Origin: Ktedonobacterales bacterium
GTDB lineage: Bacteria > Chloroflexota > Ktedonobacteria > Ktedonobacterales > JADMIN01
Direction: 5' to 3'
DNA: 32,000 bases
Assembly: GCA_030167145.1 (NCBI GenBank)
Contig: CP126532.1
Location: forward strand, 3,960,001-3,992,000
Part shown: positions 3,576 through 18,725 of the stretch, piece by piece
Layout: every line of letters starts with the position of its first letter
Numbering within the stretch: the first letter of the stretch is position 1
Position numbers and translations under genes: made by a program
Notes under the pieces: model-generated
Told to the model about the DNA's origin: nothing
The model's input: the letters and a program-made list of their open reading frames with translations, nothing else
The model's database searches: none

Positions 3576-3938
3576 TTATTCCTGTGCGTCATCCTTGTTC
3601 TGGCCGCCAAGCGACGCCAGCCCCAATCGTGTGCGATCCTCGTCGCTGGCGCGGCCCTCCACCAGCGCATCCAGCGAGGTGGGCAGCGCCGGATCACCCT
3701 GATTCGCGGCGGCGGGACCATTCTGGGTCAGCCACCCCAGCAGGTCATGCCGCCCCTTAAAACTACCGCTCACCTCTTCCAACGCGAAGCTGCCCGGAAG
3801 CTTATATTCTCCCGATGCGCTGGCTTCGCGCTCCTCGTCTTCCCACTCTTTCGCCTCCTGCGCGAGCACAGCAAGGACTTCCTCCATCGCCGCGCGCCAG
3901 CCACGTAGAAAGGCTTCGCGCTCCTGTTGTGTCGCCAT
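3576..3938 (-). CDS. Hypothetical acidic protein
   Basis: 120-aa ORF with a GAGGGG RBS about 5 nt upstream of the ATG and host-like codon bias. No recognisable motif. Confidence 0.55.
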   Translation of the reverse strand: MATQQEREAFLRGWRAAMEEVLAVLAQEAKEWEDEEREASASGEYKLPGSFALEEVSGSFKGRHDLLGWLTQNGPAAANQGDPALPTSLDALVEGRASDEDRTRLGLASLGGQNKDDAQE

Positions 3939-4190
3939 AACGCCCCTCGTTTCAAGCAGGAATCATCTCAAATCGCGGATGTCGCCGGTACGTACCGTCG
4001 CGCCACCTCCGCACAGCTTCCAGACTATCAGATAGTATGCCATCTCGCCAAGTGCCGTATGCCGAATGCCTGTCTCCCCCTACCACATCCACGTCAATCG
4101 CGTAGAATACCCATTGTGGCAGACACGCGAACAGCCCGCTTGGCCCCTGGTGGGGCTAGACATGTATGTCCGCCTCTGCTCTCTTTCCCA

Positions 4191-4248: not shown

Positions 4249-4269
4249 ACTTGTCCCAGGAGACACATT

Positions 4270-5742
4270 TTGACCGGCGAACCAGCGCTAGAAACGCCTA
4301 CAGACGACACCACCATCATCCTCGACCTGCGCGGGCGCGACCTCATACTCATCCCGCCCGCGTCGCTCTGGGCGCTGGATGACGCTGCGCTCTATATCAC
4401 TCTCTTCGGCCCCGACGATGCGCCCGCCGCCCCTGCGCTGCTTGCCCGCGACCGCCGCCACCGCTTCCTCCGCGCCCGCCCTATAGACTTCTCGCGCCTA
4501 CGCGCCGCGCTCCTTGCCACCAATAGCTGGCGCGTCGAAGTCGCCTTCCCCACCGCCCCTTTGCTCCCTCTCCAGCCCACCCTGCAAATGTCCCCGCGTC
4601 CCTACCAGGAAGAAGCGTTGCTCGCCTGGCGCGCGGCAGGGTATCGTGGCGTCGTCGTGCTGCCTACCGGCGGCGGCAAGACCCTCGTCGGCGCGCAGGC
4701 TATCGCTGATCTCGGCCTCTGGGCGCTGATCGTCGTGCCCACCATAGACCTGCTCGGCCAGTGGCGCGATGCCCTCGCGCACGCCCTGGCCCTGGCCAGC
4801 GACGAACATCTCGGCGTCTACGGCGGCGGCAGCCATGACGTGCGCCCCATCACCATCATCACCTACGAATCCGCGCAGCTTCACCCCGAACTCCTGCGCC
4901 AGTTTGGCGTGCTCGTCTTCGATGAGTGCCATCACCTCCCCGCGCCCACCTACCGCCAGATCGCCGAAGGCGCGTATACCCCCTATCGCCTCGGCCTCAG
5001 CGCCACGCCAGAGCGCGCCGACCTGGAGCATCTCGCGCTCACTCAGCTCATCGGCCCCGAAGTCTACCGCCGCGCCCCCGAAGAACTCTCCGCCGCCCGC
5101 TATCTCGCCGCCTATGATGAGCAGCAGTTGACCGCGCAACTCAGCCCCGACGACCTCGCCCGCTACTCCGCCGCCCGCGCCACCTACCGCGATTTCCTGT
5201 CTCGTCGCCGCATCGCCATCACCTCGCCCGCTGATTTTCAGCGCAAGATTCTCTGGGCCAGCGCCCGCGACTCCGCCGCCCGCACCGCCATGCTCGCCTG
5301 GCGCGAGGCGCGTTCGCTCGCCCTCAACGCTCCGGCCAAGCTGGCGCTGCTCGAAACGCTCTTTGCGCGCCACCAGGATGAGCGCGTACTCGTCTTCAGC
5401 GAATACAACACCCTGGTCGAGCAGGTCAGCCGCCGCTTCTGCATCCCCCAGATCACCTATAAGACACCCGCCGATGAGCGACGCCAGATTCTCGAACGCT
5501 TCCGCGCGGGCCAGTACACCAAGCTCGTCACCGGTCGCGTGCTCAACGAAGGCGTGGACATTCCCGATTGCGGCGTAGCCATCATCGTCAGCGGCACCAG
5601 CACCCGCCGCGAGTATATTCAGCGCCTTGGGCGCGTGCTGCGTCCCAAAGCCACCCGCGCCATCCTTTACGAACTCATCACTGAAAATACCACCGAAGAG
5701 CGTGTCGCCGAGCGGCGGCGGGGACAGAAGGGGCAGCATTGA
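4270..5742 (+). CDS. xpb: XPB/Ssl2-type SF2 DNA helicase (ERCC3-like)
   Basis: Motif I 'VLPTGGGKT', motif II 'FDECHH', motif III 'LGLSATPER', motif V 'LNEGVDIP', motif VI 'QRLGRVLR'. The start is placed at TTG 4270 because AGGAGA (4258-4263) lies 6 nt upstream. The ORF-track start at 4066 would translate through repeat copy A. Confidence 0.85.
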   Translation: MTGEPALETPTDDTTIILDLRGRDLILIPPASLWALDDAALYITLFGPDDAPAAPALLARDRRHRFLRARPIDFSRLRAALLATNSWRVEVAFPTAPLLPLQPTLQMSPRPYQEEALLAWRAAGYRGVVVLPTGGGKTLVGAQAIADLGLWALIVVPTIDLLGQWRDALAHALALASDEHLGVYGGGSHDVRPITIITYESAQLHPELLRQFGVLVFDECHHLPAPTYRQIAEGAYTPYRLGLSATPERADLEHLALTQLIGPEVYRRAPEELSAARYLAAYDEQQLTAQLSPDDLARYSAARATYRDFLSRRRIAITSPADFQRKILWASARDSAARTAMLAWREARSLALNAPAKLALLETLFARHQDERVLVFSEYNTLVEQVSRRFCIPQITYKTPADERRQILERFRAGQYTKLVTGRVLNEGVDIPDCGVAIIVSGTSTRREYIQRLGRVLRPKATRAILYELITENTTEERVAERRRGQKGQH

Positions 5743-5743
5743 C

Positions 5744-7921
5744 ATGCGATTCGCGCTCACCGACGTCAAGAAGCGCATCCACCGCCGCGACGGCGAAGCG
5801 TACCTCACGCCACATCTACTGCGCCCCAAAGAGCTTGCGCGCGAGATCGCCGCGCTGATCGCCCTCTACGAATCGTTCGTGGGCCGTCCCCGCGCGGACT
5901 TCCCCGACGATGACATCGCCGCGCTGATCGGGGACTATCGCGTGGCGCGCGGCCTCCAGCTCTGCGCAAGCGAACACTACGAATGGCAATCGCCCGCCTG
6001 GCCCGCGTCCGTAGGGGCGCATGGCGTGCGCCCGTCGCAGTCCCTCGCCGCTGCTGGCATCTCCACGCCCAGCCAGCTACGCCTTGCGCTCTACGATCAC
6101 GTTAATCAGAACTTCGGTGGCTTCCTCACCGAAGTCAACCGCGACGACGCGCTCATCGCCTTCAGCGCCGCCCTCGGCCTCACCCGTGATGCCTTCGACG
6201 AACTGCTCTACCTCGACGCCGATGAACGTGCCGTGCTTCACCGCTTGCGCGACGCTCCCCCCACACCCGCCGCGCTTGCCACCCGCTACAACCAGCTTGC
6301 CGTCGAAGCGCTGCTCTTCAACTCCGCCAGCGTCGAATGGACCATCGCCCCACCCGCCGCCGAAAGTCGCGCCGAAGGGCTGGGCACCATCGTCAAGCGC
6401 GTCTGCTTCCTCGCGCGCCGTATGGGCGTCTCCTACGATGTCGCCTTCGCCCCGCTTGACGATGGCGAACTCCCCGCCGCCCCCGCGCTCCGCGTCGCCG
6501 AGCGCCATGCGCCCTACCTGGCCCCGCTCGCCAGCGCGCCCACTCCCCCCGATCCGCCCCATACATCCCTGGACGGCTATGGCCGCGCCGTCACCCTTAC
6601 CCTCTACGGCCCGCAAGAACTGACCGGCGCGCCGCAGCAGTATGGCGAACGCCTTGCCCGTCTCTGCCGTGCGCTGCTCGGCTACCGGCGTCATGCCGAC
6701 GCAACCGGCGAGCGGAGCGCAGCCGCTCTGAGCCGTTCCGAAGAGCGCAAGCGGAGCGCAGCCGCTCTGAGCCGTTCCGAAGAGCGCAAGCGGAGCGCAG
6801 CCGCTCTGAGCTGTTCCGAAGAGCGCGGCGCCGCATTCTCCGGTGTGGCGCTGCAGGGTGCGGCGCGCGTCTATCTGCACGGCCGTCCGCTCATCTTCCC
6901 GCTAGACGAACGCCTGCTCAAACTGCTCGGACCCGATGCGAACGACGCCCCGGATATAGGTGCCGAACCAACCGACCTCACCTTCGATAGCTCCCTCGAA
7001 GGGGGACTCTACCGCGAATTCACCGCATTGGAGCGCGCGGGCGAGGCCCACGGCTGGTGGCTGGAACGCGAGCCGGAGCCAGTCATCGCCAATGATATCC
7101 TCTACGTGCCCGACTTCGCCCTCACCCGTGGCGCAACTCGCGTCTATCTCGAAATCGCGGGCTACTGGCGCCCCGAATACCGCGAGCGCAAAGTACAAAA
7201 GCTGCTCGCCCTCCGCAACGCCATCCGCCTGCTCGTCGCCGTCCCCGAATCCGCCCGCGAAGCCTTCGCCCCGCTGGACGGCGTCTTTCCGCTCATCTGG
7301 TACACGACTCGCGTCAGCGCCCAGCCAGTGCTGCGCGAACTGGACCGCGCCTACGACGATAGCGCCGTGCGGCTGGCCGCTGTGGATGCGCGCGCCGTGC
7401 TCGCCACCATTGCCGCGCGTGGCCGCATCGCGCCGCACGATGCCATGGACTTGCTCGCCTGCTTCAGCCGCGCCGAGCTAGCCCCCGCGCTGGAGCATCT
7501 TGCCGCAGCCGCTACCACGCATGGGCAGCCCAGCCCGCTCTGGCTCGATGAAGTCGGCCTCTGCTCAGCGGACTGGCACGCCGCCCTCACCCAACGCATC
7601 ACCGCCCTCATCGCGTCCGCGCCTCACAATCGCCTCACGCTTACCGTCCTCCACGCCGAACTGCGCCAGGGCGAGCCGACCGCTGGCGACCTCACCGAGA
7701 GCGCCGTCGAATCGCTGGCGCGCAGCGCCGGACTGCACATCATCCGCGATTCCATCTTCGAGGCCGTGGTCTCGTCCACCGGTGCTACTCCGTCCGCATC
7801 CGTCCCATCCCCACCACATCGTACCGTTTCGCAGGGTCCACGCGCGCAACCCCGCGAGCCTTCACGGCGTAAATCTCGTGACATCCCCTACGCGACGCAG
7901 CCGCTGCTTCCCGAAGCATAG
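5744..7921 (+). CDS. bax1: Bax1/DUF790-family PD-(D/E)XK nuclease-like protein (XPB partner), unusually long at 725 aa
   Basis: The ATG at 5744 lies 1 nt after the XPB TGA (5740-5742). The N-terminus 'LTDVKKRIHRRDGEAYLTPHLL' and the nuclease-type block 'VPDFALTRGATRVYLEIAGYWRPEYRERKVQKL' match the DUF790 pattern. The adjacency to XPB is the canonical arrangement. Confidence 0.75.
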   Translation: MRFALTDVKKRIHRRDGEAYLTPHLLRPKELAREIAALIALYESFVGRPRADFPDDDIAALIGDYRVARGLQLCASEHYEWQSPAWPASVGAHGVRPSQSLAAAGISTPSQLRLALYDHVNQNFGGFLTEVNRDDALIAFSAALGLTRDAFDELLYLDADERAVLHRLRDAPPTPAALATRYNQLAVEALLFNSASVEWTIAPPAAESRAEGLGTIVKRVCFLARRMGVSYDVAFAPLDDGELPAAPALRVAERHAPYLAPLASAPTPPDPPHTSLDGYGRAVTLTLYGPQELTGAPQQYGERLARLCRALLGYRRHADATGERSAAALSRSEERKRSAAALSRSEERKRSAAALSCSEERGAAFSGVALQGAARVYLHGRPLIFPLDERLLKLLGPDANDAPDIGAEPTDLTFDSSLEGGLYREFTALERAGEAHGWWLEREPEPVIANDILYVPDFALTRGATRVYLEIAGYWRPEYRERKVQKLLALRNAIRLLVAVPESAREAFAPLDGVFPLIWYTTRVSAQPVLRELDRAYDDSAVRLAAVDARAVLATIAARGRIAPHDAMDLLACFSRAELAPALEHLAAAATTHGQPSPLWLDEVGLCSADWHAALTQRITALIASAPHNRLTLTVLHAELRQGEPTAGDLTESAVESLARSAGLHIIRDSIFEAVVSSTGATPSASVPSPPHRTVSQGPRAQPREPSRRKSRDIPYATQPLLPEA
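6713..6829 (+). repeat. In-frame 39-nt tandem repeat x3 inside bax1
   Basis: Units at 6713-6751 and 6752-6790 are identical. The unit at 6791-6829 differs by C->T at 6812 and by its last codon. Each encodes RSAAALSRSEERK. Confidence 0.95.
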
Positions 7922-8009
7922 CCGCAAGCCAGTCAGAGACGTGTCATCCACTACCCAACACCCAGAGCATGTACCCCCGATACCCATGTCGGCAGGAAGG
8001 AGTAACGCT

Positions 8010-9647
8010 GTGAGCAACGGAGATCACGGCAATGAGCGGGAGCAGACGCGGGAGCAGACGAACGAGCGTGTAACGCCAGATGCGCCGCCGCAGTTGCCGC
8101 AGAACCACCGCATCCCGAACGACTCGCATACCTCCACCGATGACGCCATGGATGAATTGGAACGCCAGGCGCGTGAGATGCTCCAGGCCATGCGCCAGTC
8201 AGCGGGCAACCTGGGCACGCGCGTCCGCCAGGCGCTCGATCACGCCTCCTCGCTCTGGGATGAAGCGCATCCCGGCCTGCCTGTCCGCCGCGACATCGTC
8301 ACCACTGAGGATGAGCACCACGCCCGCAGCCTGGCCCGTGGCTGGGCACGGCGCGACTTCCTGGTTGACCCTGAACTCGCCTCCGCCATGAGCGTCCATG
8401 CCGTGACCCGCGCCCAGGTCTGGCGCGTCGAACTGCGCGAGCGCGGCGAGAGCCGCACCTTCGGCGTCGCGCACGAGCCATATCGCGGCCAATTCGTCGG
8501 CCAGCCCGCCCAGCCCCAATCGCCCTGGGACTACTCCTTCCCCGCCACGCCCGACATCGCCTCTGGCGAGCGCCGCGAACACATCACCGGCGCCGAAACA
8601 CTCGACAGTTGCCAGACGTGCAACGGCGCTGGCCATCGCGCCTGCGTCCGCTGCGAAGGCCGAGGGCGTACCCAATGCCCCGTCTGTCATGGCCGCGCGA
8701 AGATTCCTTGCCCGCGCTGCAAAGGCCGTGGCCGCATCGCTTCACAGCGCTTCGCCAGCGACCCCGCACAAACGAAATCGCAGATCCGGCCCTCATCCGA
8801 CCGCCTTGGCGACTTCGGTGGCAAAGTCGCGGACTTCGCCCGCTGGCTGCGCACCGACACCACGCAGACGCCCCCCGCATTCGCCTGGGCCACCCCCACC
8901 AACGCCGCCGACACCATTCCCTGCCCGGAGTGCGAGGACGGCACACGCCCCTGCGGCTGCTCCGGCGGACAAGTGCCATGCGAGCGCTGTTCCGGCGCGG
9001 GTGCGATGCCCTGCGCCGCCTGCTCCGGCACCGGCAAAGTGCTGCGCTATCAAACGGTCATCCGGCGCTTCGATACCCAGATGACCGAACAGACGCTCCC
9101 CTACGACCAATCTGAAGTCGCGGAGTGGATCGCCCCAGAGATGCTGCGTCGCGCCACCAGCGAGCCAGTCTGGGAAGGCGCATTCGATACCCTCACCGGC
9201 AGCGTCTCCGCTAATGTTCCAGCCGAGGTATGGTCGCAGCTGCGCGCCTTCGCCGACCGTACCACGACAGATACCTCAGCCCGCTCATCCCAGCCCGATG
9301 CCACATCCAGCGCAGGTGAGCGGCGTGTTATCGCCCGCCAGCTTACCCTCACCCGCGTCCCCGTCACCCGCGTCGAATACGAATTCGCGGGCAAGCCCTT
9401 CGAGTTCATCGCCGTCGGCGGCACAGACGCCGAACGCTTCTGGGCGCAGAGATTCCCACCGCGCTGGAGCCGTGTTGGTCGCTTCCTGAAAGCGCTCAGC
9501 CGCGACCTCCAGAACGAAGGTGGCTCACTCTCCCGCGCCGACTCTCCCACATCCAACCCCAACGGTGAGCCGACTTCCCTCACCGACTACCTCGCCCGCC
9601 GCGACCAACTCCGTCCTCCCGATGCCACCCCGCCCGACGAGCAATAG
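8010..9647 (+). CDS. Protein with two DnaJ-cysteine-rich-like 4xCxxC zinc-finger clusters and no J domain
   Basis: Cluster 1 is 'CQTCNGAGHRACVRCEGRGRTQCPVCHGRAKIPCPRCKGRGR' (about 8610-8736). Cluster 2 is 'CPECEDGTRPCGCSGGQVPCERCSGAGAMPCAACSGTGK' (about 8922-9037). GTG 8010 is preferred because AAGGAG (7997-8002) lies 7 nt upstream; ATG 7986 is an alternative. The ORF-track start at 7500 overlaps bax1. Confidence 0.7.
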   Translation: MSNGDHGNEREQTREQTNERVTPDAPPQLPQNHRIPNDSHTSTDDAMDELERQAREMLQAMRQSAGNLGTRVRQALDHASSLWDEAHPGLPVRRDIVTTEDEHHARSLARGWARRDFLVDPELASAMSVHAVTRAQVWRVELRERGESRTFGVAHEPYRGQFVGQPAQPQSPWDYSFPATPDIASGERREHITGAETLDSCQTCNGAGHRACVRCEGRGRTQCPVCHGRAKIPCPRCKGRGRIASQRFASDPAQTKSQIRPSSDRLGDFGGKVADFARWLRTDTTQTPPAFAWATPTNAADTIPCPECEDGTRPCGCSGGQVPCERCSGAGAMPCAACSGTGKVLRYQTVIRRFDTQMTEQTLPYDQSEVAEWIAPEMLRRATSEPVWEGAFDTLTGSVSANVPAEVWSQLRAFADRTTTDTSARSSQPDATSSAGERRVIARQLTLTRVPVTRVEYEFAGKPFEFIAVGGTDAERFWAQRFPPRWSRVGRFLKALSRDLQNEGGSLSRADSPTSNPNGEPTSLTDYLARRDQLRPPDATPPDEQ

Positions 9648-9670: not shown

Positions 9671-9728
9671 CAGCAAGCAAAAGAAGTGGCCCCGGTACAC
9701 GCACTGCGTACCAGGACCACTCTTGCTG
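9671..9728. terminator. Long imperfect hairpin between convergent genes
   Basis: CAGCAAG (9671-9677) and AGTGG (9685-9689) pair with CCACT (9717-9721) and CTTGCTG (9722-9728). There is additional inner pairing around GGTAC/GTACC. Confidence 0.35.
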
Positions 9729-9740
9729 TTGACCCAAATC

Positions 9741-10232
9741 TCAGAACGCCGGTGTCGCCGGACCGCCCGCCCAGCTCTCGGCAATGCCGCCGATAACGGG
9801 GAGCTTCGTCCACTTGCCAGAAAAACCGGCAATCATCCCCATCACCCACAGCACCAGGAAGCCGATGCTGATAATGAAGGCCACACATCCAACGATGAGT
9901 GCCCCGAAGCCAAGTCCTGCGCTACTAGCGGCTGCGGCTGTAGAGCTACCGGCGGCTGCGAGGGATCCCGCTATCAGGGCGCCATAGACAAAGAACCAGA
10001 GGAAACCAAAGATTGCGCCGGCGATGCTCAAGAGGATTCCCTGCGCCGCATGGAACTTGACGAAACGGTTGTTCTTCTCGACAAAGAAGAACACGATAGG
10101 GATGATCGGCCCCAGCACAATCATCGAAACATAACTTAGGCCAGCGGCAACATGCGCCTCCATCCCAATAGAGGTCGGTCCCCACCGGTTCGGCGCTGCC
10201 ACTGGCTGCTGCGGATACTGCTGCGGATTCAT
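9741..10232 (-). CDS. DUF4870-like small integral membrane protein
   Basis: 'LSYVSMIVLGPIIPIVFFFVEKNNRFVKFHAAQGILLSIAGAIFGF' fits the DUF4870 pattern. The start was trimmed to MNPQQ (complement of 10230-10232). Confidence 0.55.
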   Translation of the reverse strand: MNPQQYPQQPVAAPNRWGPTSIGMEAHVAAGLSYVSMIVLGPIIPIVFFFVEKNNRFVKFHAAQGILLSIAGAIFGFLWFFVYGALIAGSLAAAGSSTAAAASSAGLGFGALIVGCVAFIISIGFLVLWVMGMIAGFSGKWTKLPVIGGIAESWAGGPATPAF

Positions 10233-10547
10233 TGCGCGTGGTCCTTTCTGGACACCATGCCAGGTTGTCACTCGACATGTGGTTCGCCGGATAGGAACTC
10301 CACAGCCCCATCCAGGTGCGGAAAGGCGCTCTGTTCTGGCATCGCTGCTCCGCTTCCCCATCAGCACCCATCCAACGGCGGCGAACCCATCTCGGTAGCA
10401 AAGGTACAAGATAAATGCTTCCTTGTCTAGCGTCCAAAAGGCTGATTCTCACCCCTACGTACTAATACCGATTCCTTGTCGGCCCACACCGTCCACGCCC
10501 ATCGCTGGCGCGCCACCAATTCACTTCTTCGCCCTCAACCACTGCGC

Positions 10548-14889: not shown

Positions 14890-16485
14890 TTAAACCTTCT
14901 GTCCCGCATGAATCTTCTTCCGCACCCGCGACAAATCCCAGCGCATGCGCCAGATCATCAGCAGGTAGAGCACATATCCCGCCACCACCACCACCGCCGC
15001 CTCTGCGCCAATCGTCCCCAACGCTTTCTCCACAGCGGACGAATCCAACTTCGACACCAGCGGCAGCGTCCGCAGATCCAGCGTCGTGCCATTCGGCGCT
15101 TCCAGCAGAAATAGCGTCGCCACAAATGGGATCACGCTCAACACCGCCCGCATGAAAGTGGTCAGCGGATGAAACGCCCCGCGCAACTTGTCCTTGATTT
15201 CCCGCTCGTGCTTCGTCAACAACAGGAATGGCAACTGCCCCGCGACGATGCTCAGCCCCCAGCTTACCCGGTTCGCCCAGATCCCCGCCACCCCGACGGA
15301 TAGACCCGCATGCGCCACCAGCAAATCGAAACACAGGATCACGACGAAGAAGAGCAAACTGGCGACCGGCAAATCTTGCACCAGTTGCGTCGCAATCTCC
15401 TCCGGCTTCGGATTCGGCGTCCCATTCAATCGCCGCGTAACCCATCGTACAGCGTCGCCCACCCAGCCGCCGCCATGCGGCGATTCACTCTGCACGATTC
15501 CCTGCACCAGCTTCACCAGTTCCGGCCACGCCTCGATGCGTGCGCGATTTACCAGCGGCGCGAAGATCAGATACACCGCCGCCGCCACGCTCGCCTCGAT
15601 CCACAACGTCGCCCCCAGCCCCGGATTCAACCCAACCCCATGAAACACGCCGAGCGCGCCCGCCACACCGATTGCCACCACCACCAACGCCGTCACACGC
15701 CACCGCTCCGAGGGCCACGTCGTATCTGACCCCACCACCTGCGGCAGCTTCTTCGTCACCAGACTCAGCACGCTCAGCGCCACATCGTCGAAGGTCGCCA
15801 GCATCAGAAACACCACCAGCAGATTCGCGATATACACCCCCGGCGCATGCAGCAACGCGATCAGCGCCAGCAATCCCACCGTCAGCACGCTCTTCAGCGC
15901 ATATTGACCGCCGCTCCACGGCTTGTTCAAATCGAACACTTCCTTGGCGTCGAAGACGATTGCCGGAACCAACCACACCACCAGATACACCAGCGCCGTC
16001 TCGCACAGCACCAGATACAACCCCGGCCACGAATGCGCCTCCCACCCCACCACCATCGCCGCCACCGTCACGAGCAACGCCACCGCGTACCACCGCCCCA
16101 CCACCGTCACATGCGTCTGCACCATCCACAGCAGCGCCAGCCCCACCACCCCCACCAGCGACAGTAACCCATGAACGCAGATCGCCACCACGCCCCATGC
16201 CCCACTATCCGGCAGCCCAAAGAGACGGCTATACGGCGTCGCATACGCCAGCCAAATGCAATAGATAAAGACGAATTGCCCCAGCAGCATCCCGCTTTCC
16301 ACCAACGCCCGTTTCCCCAGCGGCAGATGCCTATCCGGCGTAACAAAGATCTCCTTCACCGCGAAAATCAGCGCCAGCGCCACCGCGCCGAGCAACAGAT
16401 GATACAGCAGCGGCGCATCCCGCGCCACAAATACCGGGCCAATCCCCTCTGTGAACAGATCCGTAAAGACATTCCCGCCAGCCAT
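14890..16485 (-). CDS. Uncharacterised polytopic membrane protein (about 14 TM segments)
   Basis: 531 aa. The start was trimmed to MAGGNVF (complement of 16483-16485) with an AGGAGGG RBS about 7 nt upstream. Highly hydrophobic, with no motif I recognise. Confidence 0.7.
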   Translation of the reverse strand: MAGGNVFTDLFTEGIGPVFVARDAPLLYHLLLGAVALALIFAVKEIFVTPDRHLPLGKRALVESGMLLGQFVFIYCIWLAYATPYSRLFGLPDSGAWGVVAICVHGLLSLVGVVGLALLWMVQTHVTVVGRWYAVALLVTVAAMVVGWEAHSWPGLYLVLCETALVYLVVWLVPAIVFDAKEVFDLNKPWSGGQYALKSVLTVGLLALIALLHAPGVYIANLLVVFLMLATFDDVALSVLSLVTKKLPQVVGSDTTWPSERWRVTALVVVAIGVAGALGVFHGVGLNPGLGATLWIEASVAAAVYLIFAPLVNRARIEAWPELVKLVQGIVQSESPHGGGWVGDAVRWVTRRLNGTPNPKPEEIATQLVQDLPVASLLFFVVILCFDLLVAHAGLSVGVAGIWANRVSWGLSIVAGQLPFLLLTKHEREIKDKLRGAFHPLTTFMRAVLSVIPFVATLFLLEAPNGTTLDLRTLPLVSKLDSSAVEKALGTIGAEAAVVVVAGYVLYLLMIWRMRWDLSRVRKKIHAGQKV

Positions 16486-16760
16486 CCCGTCATCCCTCCT
16501 GCAAGAGCAACACATCGAGCGGCCACATCACGCTGGCGGCGCGTGCGCTCGCGAAGAAAAGCAGTAGGATGGGTGCGACACTCTGAATAGAAAAACCGTC
16601 CAGCACACACCGCAAGCCAGCATCGTGGTGCGACACATATATCATGGATTCCGCGCGCCGTCAACTCGTCAAAAGTAGCGTCCATTCCCCCACTCCACCG
16701 CGCTACCCATCAGCTAGAACACCCTTCCACCAGAGCGAGCGAAAGCAGAGATCCCAAGCC

Positions 16761-16949: not shown

Positions 16950-16976
16950 CCCATCATCAACCAATGGAGGTTGCGC

Positions 16977-18725
16977 GTGCGCGTTCATGATCGTCGCTGG
17001 TGGCTTCGTGCACTCTGGGCCATCTGCCTGCTCGTCAGTTCAGGACTCTTCGCCGTCTGGTATTTCCAGCACATCCTGCCGCTCGACCGCGCCTTCGCCA
17101 TCCCTGCCTACCGCGACGCCATCCTCGCTGCTGTCATCTGCTTCATGCTCATTGTCCTCGCCATCTACACCGCGCTCGGCGCCCTCACCGCCCGCCACCG
17201 CTACCACGCCCGTCTCGCCACCATCCACGGCGACCACAACGCCATCCCCATCTCCCGCCTCGCCGACGAGCTATCACCGGTACTAACCTATAGGCCCCTA
17301 CCAGTCATAGCCAATAACTCCCCTGCCAGGCGCACAGCGATAACTGCGGTTCTTGGATTCGTGTTCTTACTGGGTATTCTCATCTTCCTGCTGGCAAGTG
17401 CACATTTCGTATCTTTCTTACAGTATTTGATATTTATAAGTCGCATGGATCCAATCTATCCGTATCAAGCGGTGTCCAATCATCTGCCTCTGTTGGATCC
17501 CATTCCCTACTTTGGTGGCCTTGCGCTGCTCTTCTTGTTTAACGCTCGCGACACTTCAGGCCTACGGCGCATACCGTATCTGATGCGCCGCATCACCATC
17601 ACCAGCGATGGCATTACTTGCGTATCCGCCTGGGGCGCTTCACGCACGATATTCTGGCATGACGCAAGGCTTTTCGAGGTCGCTTACCAATTTGCGCCTC
17701 CAGCCCAAACCGACCGGCTGAGCGGTTTTCTCCTCTACACCTTGCATGGTACGCGAAGCACCCTCCGCTGGACCCAACGCTTTGGCGTCCCAATAGCATC
17801 AAGTGATCCCTTCCTTTCAATTGCGCCAATGGTGGCTCGACATACCAGTCTGGTTCCGCGCTCCTTTGACGTCCGGCTTCGTGAACTATCGCAGACAACC
17901 TCTCCTGATACTGAGGTCGTTCGCTCGCACATCCTCCGTATTGCAAGCTGTGCTGCCGTTCTTCTCGCAAGTTCGACACTCATTGGAACTGACCAACAAG
18001 GATTGGTCATGTTCAGTTTGTTCGCTCTTAGTGTGGCGGGATTCACTGTCTCCACATATGGCACCAGGGCGCGCAAACGTCAGCATGATATGCTGGCATC
18101 TCCCCTACTCGCTACTGCCCCAACCAATGCGAGTACCGAACAAGGCAGCACATCAGTATCGCGGCAGCAGTTCGCCGCCCCCCTCTACGAAATGACCGTC
18201 GGCTCCTATCCCCTCTTCGTCTTCAACCAGATAGTCTTCGCCCTCATGGGCGCAGCTGCCGCGCTCGCCGCGCTTGGCATCCTCGGCGCGGAGTTCGCGC
18301 AATACGTGCTTCACGTCCCTGGACTACATCTGTATTCATTGCCCCCACTTTTTGCCCTGAGCCTCGTTCTGTTGCTCCTCGCAGGTATCCTCACCATCAT
18401 CGTCTCCATCCGCGCCCGCGACACCATCGTCCTCGCCGACCTCACCGGCGTCCGCAAACGCTGGCTCCTCGGCAACACCTTCATCCCCTGGGGCGACATC
18501 GAGCGCATCGAAGTCCGCTTCATCGCTGGCAGGCCCACCTACTACCGCGTCTTCGGCCACGGCGGCCGCCCCGCCTTCGCCTGGCCCGCACGCCCATTCC
18601 AGCCCAGCCCCAAACCCCAGGAACCCGGCGCCACCCTCACCAACCCCGCCAACATGGCCGCCATCGTCGCCCAGCGCAGCGGCAAACCAATCCTCCCCGG
18701 CCCGCCGCGCCTCCTCCCCTTGTGA
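16977..18725 (+). CDS. Uncharacterised membrane protein with two TM-pair plus bacterial-PH-like modules; the central part has foreign composition
   Basis: GTG 16977 lies 6 nt after GGAGG (16966-16970); TTG 16971 is an alternative. PH-like strings are 'ITITSDGITCVSAWGASRTIFWHDARLFEV' and 'IVLADLTGVRKRWLLGNTFIPWGDIERIEVRF'. The frame stays open through a 40%-GC segment. Confidence 0.7.
   Translation: MRVHDRRWWLRALWAICLLVSSGLFAVWYFQHILPLDRAFAIPAYRDAILAAVICFMLIVLAIYTALGALTARHRYHARLATIHGDHNAIPISRLADELSPVLTYRPLPVIANNSPARRTAITAVLGFVFLLGILIFLLASAHFVSFLQYLIFISRMDPIYPYQAVSNHLPLLDPIPYFGGLALLFLFNARDTSGLRRIPYLMRRITITSDGITCVSAWGASRTIFWHDARLFEVAYQFAPPAQTDRLSGFLLYTLHGTRSTLRWTQRFGVPIASSDPFLSIAPMVARHTSLVPRSFDVRLRELSQTTSPDTEVVRSHILRIASCAAVLLASSTLIGTDQQGLVMFSLFALSVAGFTVSTYGTRARKRQHDMLASPLLATAPTNASTEQGSTSVSRQQFAAPLYEMTVGSYPLFVFNQIVFALMGAAAALAALGILGAEFAQYVLHVPGLHLYSLPPLFALSLVLLLLAGILTIIVSIRARDTIVLADLTGVRKRWLLGNTFIPWGDIERIEVRFIAGRPTYYRVFGHGGRPAFAWPARPFQPSPKPQEPGATLTNPANMAAIVAQRSGKPILPGPPRLLPL

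Follow-up and report, generated by a model that had tools for sequence, protein, structure and literature searches.

Does a helicase gene followed on the same strand by a nuclease gene and a zinc-finger gene encode one three-protein machine for DNA surveillance, or a two-gene enzyme with a neighbour that can come and go? This question is raised by the xpb-bax1 locus of a soil bacterium of the order Ktedonobacterales (Chloroflexota), represented by a metagenome-assembled genome (MAG). The window analysed here is the whole stretch of 32,000 nucleotides (nt) from contig CP126532.1 (positions 3,960,001 to 3,992,000), and all positions below are counted within it. The three genes are as follows:

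4270 to 5742, plus strand: xpb, encoding an XPB-type superfamily 2 (SF2) helicase of 490 amino acids (aa), with a TTG start and a TGA stop at 5740-5742.
5744 to 7921, plus strand: bax1 (OJF49_003811), encoding a long-form DUF790/Bax1 nuclease of 725 aa, with an ATG start.
8010 to 9647, plus strand: zinc-finger (ZnF) gene (OJF49_003812), with a GTG start, encoding a soluble protein of 545 aa that has a beta-rich core with two DnaJ-type cysteine-rich modules.

The original prediction, made from the sequence alone, proposed a candidate three-gene module and left its role between DNA repair and defence. Its coordinates for all three genes are exact, and both gaps were re-read in the sequence: a single base (C, 5743) separates the xpb TGA from the bax1 ATG, and 88 nt separate the bax1 stop from the ZnF gene start. 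The TTG of xpb is preceded by AGGAGA (4258-4263) and its 490-aa product fits the homologue lengths of 487-501 aa, while the GTG at 8010 agrees with the N-termini of the ZnF homologues. The ZnF product is 100% identical to the protein OJF49_003812 of a Ktedonobacterales MAG. We propose, with moderate confidence, that the locus is a vertically inherited, chromosomal two-gene XPB-Bax1 unit to which a co-transcribed but separable DnaJ-like protein has been added.

The identity of the pair was established from both gene products. In Bax1, Pfam DUF790 (PF05626) was found in two stretches with 142 bits against a cut-off of 28.8 (E 2.8e-41), which bears out the family assignment of the original prediction. 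The conserved core comprises two regions:

6065 to 6688, plus strand: N-terminal/central DUF790 region of Bax1, residues 108-315, which when scanned alone matches profile positions 84-233 (E 4.5e-18).
6968 to 7336, plus strand: PD-(D/E)XK nuclease domain of Bax1, residues 409-531, which aligns to residues 277-380 of Sulfurisphaera tokodaii Bax1 (StBax1).

The archaeal Bax1 chains 6P4O_B and 6P66_B in the Protein Data Bank (PDB) match this nuclease domain at E 4e-14. The block PDF...YLEIAGYWRPEYRERK, which had been read earlier as PD-(D/E)XK-type, falls within this domain in the alignment with the solved structures. Residues E443, D457 (of PDF), E470 (of LEI), K483 and K486 are invariant across 42 aligned Bax1 sequences (alignment A2), and an active site of the PD-(D/E)XK type is therefore expected from the sequence. 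The first 107 residues of Bax1 gave no detectable sequence match. For XPB, the motifs PTGGGKT, DECHH, SATP and QRLGRVLR were read directly in the translation, and Pfam ResIII, DEAD and Helicase_C were above their cut-offs, so that the full SF2 motif set claimed earlier is present. Pfam ERCC3_RAD25_C scored 58.5 bits against a cut-off of 27. In a phmmer search of the PDB, archaeal XPB proteins were the top matches over residues 105-485 (6P4F_A and 5TNU_A, E 3e-93; 6P66_A and 2FWR_A, E 6e-92). One unbroken alignment joined residues 106-484 to residues 67-439 of S. tokodaii XPB (StXPB), including the thumb (ThM) insertion between the lobes. Residues 1-105 of XPB gave no Pfam or PDB sequence match.

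Judged by these alignments, the window pair is a genuine archaeal-type XPB-Bax1. It shares with the archaeal complexes (Archaeoglobus fulgidus 6P66; S. tokodaii 6P4O, 6P4F and 6P4W) a helicase gene that adjoins a DUF790 nuclease gene and is translationally coupled to it, the XPB core from end to end, the Bax1 nuclease domain with its catalytic residues, and the central DUF790 region. In contrast, the host is a bacterium, and Bax1 has long linkers of variable length, an additional predicted pair of winged-helix domains, and a basic tail that bears a motif at its end. The position of the RED motif in XPB also reads R-A-D (ATPERADLEH), where StXPB has R-D-D in the same alignment, and the N-terminal residues of both proteins named above are unmatched. 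The scores stay below the NCBIfam equivalog cut-offs, with 225 bits against 610 for repair_heli_XPB (NF045503), and 76 and 59 bits against 500 for the endonuclease Bax1 models (NF053695 and NF053694). By sequence, the helicase is thus a member of the XPB family and not a close orthologue of the NCBIfam curated set. The XPB-Bax1 system is structurally well described in archaea and hardly studied in bacteria, and the present locus represents a long bacterial form of it, whose extra parts look like docking modules. Co-occurrence of DUF790 with ResIII/helicase domains in prokaryotes has been reported (PMC3424549). Mycobacterium tuberculosis also has a bacterial XPB homologue (Rv0861c), and the paper on it stated that no bacterial XPB-Bax1 complex had been identified at that time (PMC3353954). 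Papers in which Rv0862c is named were found to be studies on unrelated subjects. We found no characterised bacterial Bax1 in the searchable literature.

The arrangement of the genes in other genomes shows how far the pair and the third gene belong together. The search with the Bax1 alignment gave 80 genome loci, all from the class Ktedonobacteria, and their identity to the query fell into two bands, 41-52% for loci from uncultured MAGs and 33-37% for loci that include the named cultured genera. The xpb-bax1 gap has a median of 44.5 nt, with many gaps of 0-2 nt. The bax1-ZnF gap, on the same strand, has the same median (44 nt; range -28 to 177). Among the 34 loci with a Bax1 identity to the query of 41% or more, 31 have the ZnF gene behind bax1, and the contigs of the other three stop at or just past bax1. 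Three look-ups seeded with the ZnF protein all returned the xpb-bax1-ZnF trio, one of them amid quite different flanks, and the trio also stands behind different upstream genes in loci L001 and L025. A metagenome scan with the ZnF alignment gave 61 loci in all, of which 45 adjoin bax1 and 12 are without upstream sequence; under stricter criteria for the room available, bax1 lies upstream of the ZnF gene in 44 of 48 informative loci, which come from one uncultured Ktedonobacterales clade. This adjacency (92%) compares with 17% (8/47) for the downstream open reading frame (ORF) and 50% (18/36 trio loci) for the small ORF just upstream of xpb. The latter, on the minus strand at 3576-3938 and divergent from xpb, encodes an acidic product of 120 aa with no Pfam match.

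Outside this clade the picture is different. The remaining Ktedonobacteria contribute 49 loci, all encoding a long Bax1, and none of them was found to have a ZnF gene within about 8 kb of bax1. In these loci, a Ser/Thr kinase gene on the minus strand often lies between xpb and bax1, or xpb is at a distance of over 8 kb. For example, an opposite-strand kinase gene (741-849 aa) stands between the two in Ktedonobacter racemifer and Thermogemmatispora (L035, 5079-7628; L066, 5260-7485), where MeaB is encoded upstream of xpb. A Deinococcus plasmid likewise carries a helicase gene together with a DUF790 gene and no ZnF neighbour; its DUF790 protein is short (408 aa), unlike that of the window. Conversely, four loci in which 6 kb or more of sequence precedes an intact ZnF gene contain neither xpb nor bax1. 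Two of them (L103 and L106) have the order (Tex), Na/Ca exchanger, small minus-strand ORF, ZnF gene, which is the window order minus exactly xpb-bax1; the small ORF that still adjoins the ZnF gene there is a homologue of the 3576-3938 ORF (72-76% identity). A separate paralogue clade for the unlinked copies was ruled out, since the four are scattered in the neighbour-joining tree. The proposed three-gene module is therefore syntenic in the window's clade, and it does not extend to the other Ktedonobacteria or to the four unlinked copies. Gene order suggests that xpb-bax1 is the functional unit and that the ZnF gene, probably co-transcribed with it in the window's clade, can persist without the pair. 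The presence or absence of the xpb-bax1 cassette beside a retained ZnF gene provides natural genetic controls. As a separate observation, one MAG, SMAG_U2012 (DASTKI01), has two divergent trios (L009 and L030; Bax1 48% and 41% identical to the query), which may be a true duplication or the result of mixed populations or bin contamination.

The ZnF protein itself was examined through its two cysteine clusters:

8610 to 8720, plus strand: cysteine cluster 1 (C201-C237), four CxxC pairs with a regular 11-residue spacing.
8922 to 9023, plus strand: cysteine cluster 2 (C305-C338), in the order CxxC, CxC, CxxC, CxxC.

Both clusters had been noticed in the original prediction. Their 16 Cys residues (eight per cluster) are invariant in 46 ZnF sequences, as is the Gly that follows in cluster 1, and most of the following glycines overall are invariant too. 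In cluster 1, three of the four repeats fit CxxCxGxG exactly. Thus, each cluster has the four Cys pairs and glycines of the two-zinc cysteine-rich (CR) pattern of DnaJ-type proteins, and the closest structural or sequence matches are BSD2, zf-AtTam37, Anti-TRAP and DnaJ. The individual scores are low: Pfam zf-AtTam37 (19.7 bits) and BSD2_CRD (17.5 bits) are both below the cut-off of 27, cluster 2 has a weak Anti-TRAP-like match, and the protein is below the cut-off of every family of the DnaJ-type CR group (PF00684 and relatives), with PF00684 recorded for some homologues. Unlike DnaJ, the window protein has no J-domain or G/F region, cluster 2 includes a CxC pair, and the beta-rich core in which the two CR modules sit has no known fold match. 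The AlphaFold2 (AF2) model (predicted local distance difference test, pLDDT, 79) has a long N-terminal helix and, standing out from the beta-rich core, the two zinc modules. Fold searches of the PDB and BFVD returned nothing significant, the best match being the BSD2 zinc finger (E 0.29). The protein has no transmembrane segment and an isoelectric point (pI) of 6.35. Within the part of the gene that encodes the disordered N-terminal region, a 12-nt tandem repeat (GCGGGAGCAGAC, two copies) occurs at 8036-8067.

The 155 homologues of the ZnF protein are 40-51% identical to it, and all those with a named organism are from Ktedonobacterales. In an exhaustive profile search, the close family comprised 35 clusters at E <= 1e-30, and 709 further proteins were found at E <= 1e-10. 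Pairwise BLASTP showed that these relatives have the core in full: a Spirochaete protein shares residues 138-500 (E 2e-22) and a Nitrospiraceae protein residues 90-477 (E 2e-26); the latter has a true J-domain at its N-terminus and LprI at its C-terminus. Other distant relatives are fused to a Ser/Thr kinase (Tepidisphaeraceae), to GYF/GYF_2 or TPR domains, or to C-terminal hydrophobic segments. The beta-rich core with two DnaJ-type zinc modules is a widespread, unannotated bacterial module, and the domains fused to it suggest work of a chaperone or signalling type more than a part in DNA enzymology. Examples of this core in Nitrospiraceae, Planctomycetota and Spirochaetes are P0271, P0273, P0276 and P0309 (loci L115 and L116). 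In the two neighbourhoods of distant homologues that were inspected, no helicase or nuclease gene was nearby.

The other unusual feature of the locus is the length of Bax1. The archaeal Bax1 chains in the PDB have 373-501 aa, with four domains in the solved form, and the window protein is longer by about 250 aa; the earlier remark that it is well above the archaeal length thus holds. Three parts of it lie outside the conserved core:

6711 to 6826, plus strand: in-frame tandem repeat of 39 nt in 3.0 copies (SAAALSRSEERKR, three times), found by Tandem Repeats Finder (TRF) with 98% matches, in the variable linker before the nuclease domain.
7388 to 7774, plus strand: two tandem winged-helix-like domains, Bax1 residues about 549-677, from AF2 and Foldseek; acidic, with a net charge of about -8.
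7775 to 7918, plus strand: disordered basic tail of Bax1 with QPRxxxRRK and a C-terminal motif (YATQPLLPEA in the window), pLDDT 54-70, pI 11.3.

The repeat insert named in the original prediction exists, and it is not a feature of the family because none of the 41 homologues in the alignment has it; by this comparison it is a private, recent in-frame triplication. Further linkers (about residues 240-280 and 390-410) also differ in length among homologues. The C-terminal extension of about 200 aa, which had been noted too, is conserved throughout the class Ktedonobacteria, and most of the 80 genome loci match the query nearly full-length. An AF2 model of residues 528-725 (pLDDT 87.8; predicted template modelling score, pTM, 0.72) has the pattern H-E-H-H-E-E twice, followed by the disordered tail. 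The top Foldseek matches of this segment were all winged-helix or tandem winged-helix proteins (UFL1, TFIIIC tauB, STK19, SelB, ESCRT-II and forkhead) with probabilities up to 0.97 and E values of at least 0.04. The predicted fold class is therefore likely to be winged-helix, and a specific relative is not nameable. Since these domains are acidic and the tail is basic, the globular part would favour docking to a protein over binding to DNA. In locus L003, Bax1 was called as two genes, 5709-7166 (485 aa) and 7213-7896 (227 aa), so that the winged-helix and tail part is a separate ORF there, either through a frameshift or because the gene is truly divided.

The tail ends in a motif that differs between lineages. 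In the Bax1 alignment, Q702, P703, R704, R709 and F722 are invariant or nearly so. We compared 87 unique Bax1 C-termini, 47 from lineages lacking the ZnF gene and 40 from the window's clade. The pattern Q-x-[D/N]-L-W, after the basic patch, lies 0-6 residues from the C-terminus in 46 of the 47 tails of ZnF-less Ktedonobacteria, and the remaining tail has QGDLW farther from its end; in shuffled tails, the pattern occurred in 2.2% of trials. These lineages include Ktedonobacter, Thermogemmatispora, Dictyobacter, Thermosporothrix and Tengunoibacter (loci L033-L083; for example about 10050-10061 in both L035 and L066). The consensus for binding to the bacterial beta-clamp is QL(S/D)LF, usually at the C-terminus (PMC9690074). 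With a disordered linker and then Q-x-[D/N]-L-aromatic at the extreme C-terminus, these Bax1 tails resemble those of beta-clamp clients, and the likeness is taken as a lead only, one that is concrete as to where the enzyme might act.

The explanation that we favour, a chromosomal XPB-Bax1 unit with a separable DnaJ-like addition, draws on the family assignments, the conserved catalytic residues, the synteny statistics, the predicted folds and the tail motifs. We hypothesize that the two enzymes would form a complex like the solved archaeal ones, in which XPB would open DNA or move along it, Bax1 would use its N-terminal half for binding, and the PD-(D/E)XK domain would cut at the junction of double-stranded and single-stranded DNA. 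The acidic winged-helix pair and the basic disordered tail with its hydrophobic end motif, as found in Ktedonobacteria Bax1, are most likely protein-docking elements, and in most of the class, the Qx[D/N]LW tail would hold the nuclease on DNA that is loaded with the clamp. The ZnF protein would be a separable addition, possibly chaperone- or adaptor-like, and not an obligatory third subunit.

A true three-component machine, with the ZnF protein as a dedicated subunit, assembly factor or regulator that in the window's clade docks, for example, on the diverged Bax1 tail or winged-helix domains, is a possible but unlikely alternative. It would explain why the ZnF gene follows on the same strand at the same short median distance, with no terminator-like site between bax1 and the ZnF gene of the window in a terminator scan. 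It would also explain why adjacency is kept in 44 of 48 loci when the proteins share no more than 40-50% identity and the other flanks are kept in 17-50%, why the trio recurs amid different upstream genes in L001/L025, and why the Bax1 tail motif is changed where the ZnF gene is present. However, XPB and a long Bax1 do without the ZnF gene in all 49 of the other Ktedonobacteria loci, and of the four intact unlinked ZnF copies, two cleanly lack xpb-bax1 while their context is that of the window. The distant ZnF homologues are without a helicase or nuclease in the cases checked, and the correlation of tail and ZnF gene amounts to a single evolutionary event. The opposite idea is that the ZnF gene is an unrelated neighbour that shares a transcript or region with the pair and has stayed there by shared ancestry in a narrow clade. 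The family is indeed restricted (35 clusters at the strict threshold, with all organism-named members from Ktedonobacterales), the gene is kept under the same divergent promoter region where xpb-bax1 is absent, and its homologues elsewhere carry signalling- or chaperone-type fusions. We regard this idea as improbable, because the adjacency is far better kept than that of the other flanks at about 55% protein divergence and the bax1-ZnF gaps are as short as those within the pair. More speculative still is a proposal to which we give a small chance: Bax1 would be a sliding-clamp client that docks on DnaN, and in the window's clade its tail would have been rewired ([Y/W]xTxxΦF plus acidic extension) to bind a newly acquired ZnF protein, giving a lineage-specific three-protein machine. 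If so, docking of Qx[D/N]LW on DnaN would place an XPB-driven nuclease at replication or repair intermediates, and the ZnF protein would serve as an alternative platform for recruitment or assembly in the window's clade.

An anti-phage system made of a helicase, a PD-(D/E)XK nuclease and an accessory protein was also considered, because the gene layout is like that of several defence systems and the helicase scores with PADLOC PbeA (E 1e-50) and with TIGR04095, dnd_restrict_1 (E 3e-33). PbeA belongs to the archaeal Dnd-linked PbeABCD system. The match reflects the shared XPB-like SF2 core only: the window helicase covers positions 249-635 of the 672 in the PbeA profile, positions 1-248 are absent, TIGR04095 reaches 115 bits against a cut-off of 600, and the archaeal XPB structures match far better. 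PADLOC matched the helicase alone (PbeA and others) and returned zero families for Bax1 or the ZnF protein, and PHROGs gave nothing for Bax1 and one marginal match for the ZnF protein (E 6e-4), to a family of unknown function. Bax1 had no match in 50,697 phage records and two in 72,556 plasmids, one a haloarchaeal megaplasmid and the other the Deinococcus plasmid. Neither pbeBCD nor dnd genes are near xpb, and among the larger ORFs of the window there are no dnd/pbe, restriction-modification or mobile-element genes. The locus lies instead in a conserved housekeeping block. The other genes of the window encode Tex, a Na/Ca exchanger, tRNA-Leu, tRNA-Ser, a ClpB/C-type ATPase, an MprF-like synthase, ribosomal protein S6, a peptidyl-prolyl isomerase, a HemN-like radical-SAM protein, RecJ, a P450 and a Yip1-domain protein. 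In other genomes, parts of this neighbourhood recur near the locus, as do MeaB, methylmalonyl-CoA mutase and thiolase genes, and the 80 genome loci all belong to one class instead of being patchy across taxa. No paper linking Bax1 to defence was found, the sole co-occurrence being an entry in a reference list. The data fit a function in core-genome maintenance, and defence is without positive support; this tempting reading, which the original prediction had kept as an option, is removed as unsupported and in our view very unlikely.

Several points weigh against the XPB-Bax1 unit with a separable addition as we have formulated it. The argument is comparative throughout, and to our knowledge the in vivo role of XPB-Bax1 is unsettled even in archaea. 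The 92% adjacency of the ZnF gene to bax1, set against 17% and 50% for the flanks, argues for more than hitch-hiking, and the genomes with unlinked ZnF copies could hold xpb-bax1 elsewhere. The winged-helix assignment leans on Foldseek matches with E values no lower than 0.04. As for the clamp, the Bax1 tails differ from the textbook motif in having W for F/L and a residue other than L at position 2. In the window's clade, Qxx[LIMFV][FWL] occurs in 10 of 40 tails only, and the usual form is [Y/W]-x-T-x-x-Φ-F with an acidic extension after the motif. The clamp reading is thus weakest in this clade, because the motif is degenerate there (QPLLPEA in the window).

Two further features bound the locus and bear on its transcription:

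4100 to 4110, plus strand: candidate operon promoter, a GCGTAGAATAC element with a -10-like TAGAAT, located some 160 nt before xpb begins.
9684 to 9722, no strand assigned: GC-rich hairpin with a 17-bp stem, between the convergent ZnF gene and a minus-strand membrane-protein ORF (9741-10409), flagged on the minus strand by the terminator scan.

The 8-mers CGTAGAAT, GTAGAATA and TAGAATAC are shared by 10-11 of 54 distinct xpb upstream regions. A scan for sigma-70 consensus promoters did not flag the 4100-4110 element and found no site upstream of xpb or between bax1 and the ZnF gene; since the scan missed the element, we infer the promoter role of GCGTAGAATAC from its conservation. The ATG at 4066 was considered as an alternative xpb start and ruled out, because the homologue alignments start at residues 1-18 of the product counted from 4270 and the conserved -10-like element also lies 3' of 4066. 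A LexA/SOS box (GAAC-N4-GTTC) was sought in the 54 upstream regions, which gave two isolated matches with one mismatch and none in the window, so that SOS control of xpb is unsupported. The hairpin at 9684-9722 probably ends the operon and is likely to be a bidirectional terminator. An Rfam scan of the whole window returned the two tRNAs only. Between the genes for the ClpB/C-type ATPase and the MprF-like synthase, there are two long ORFs with no Pfam match, at 14890-16515 (minus strand, 541 aa) and 16971-18725 (plus strand, 584 aa). The G+C content of the window is 64-69%, and such a composition commonly gives rise to numerous long ORFs in other frames and on other strands, as are present here.

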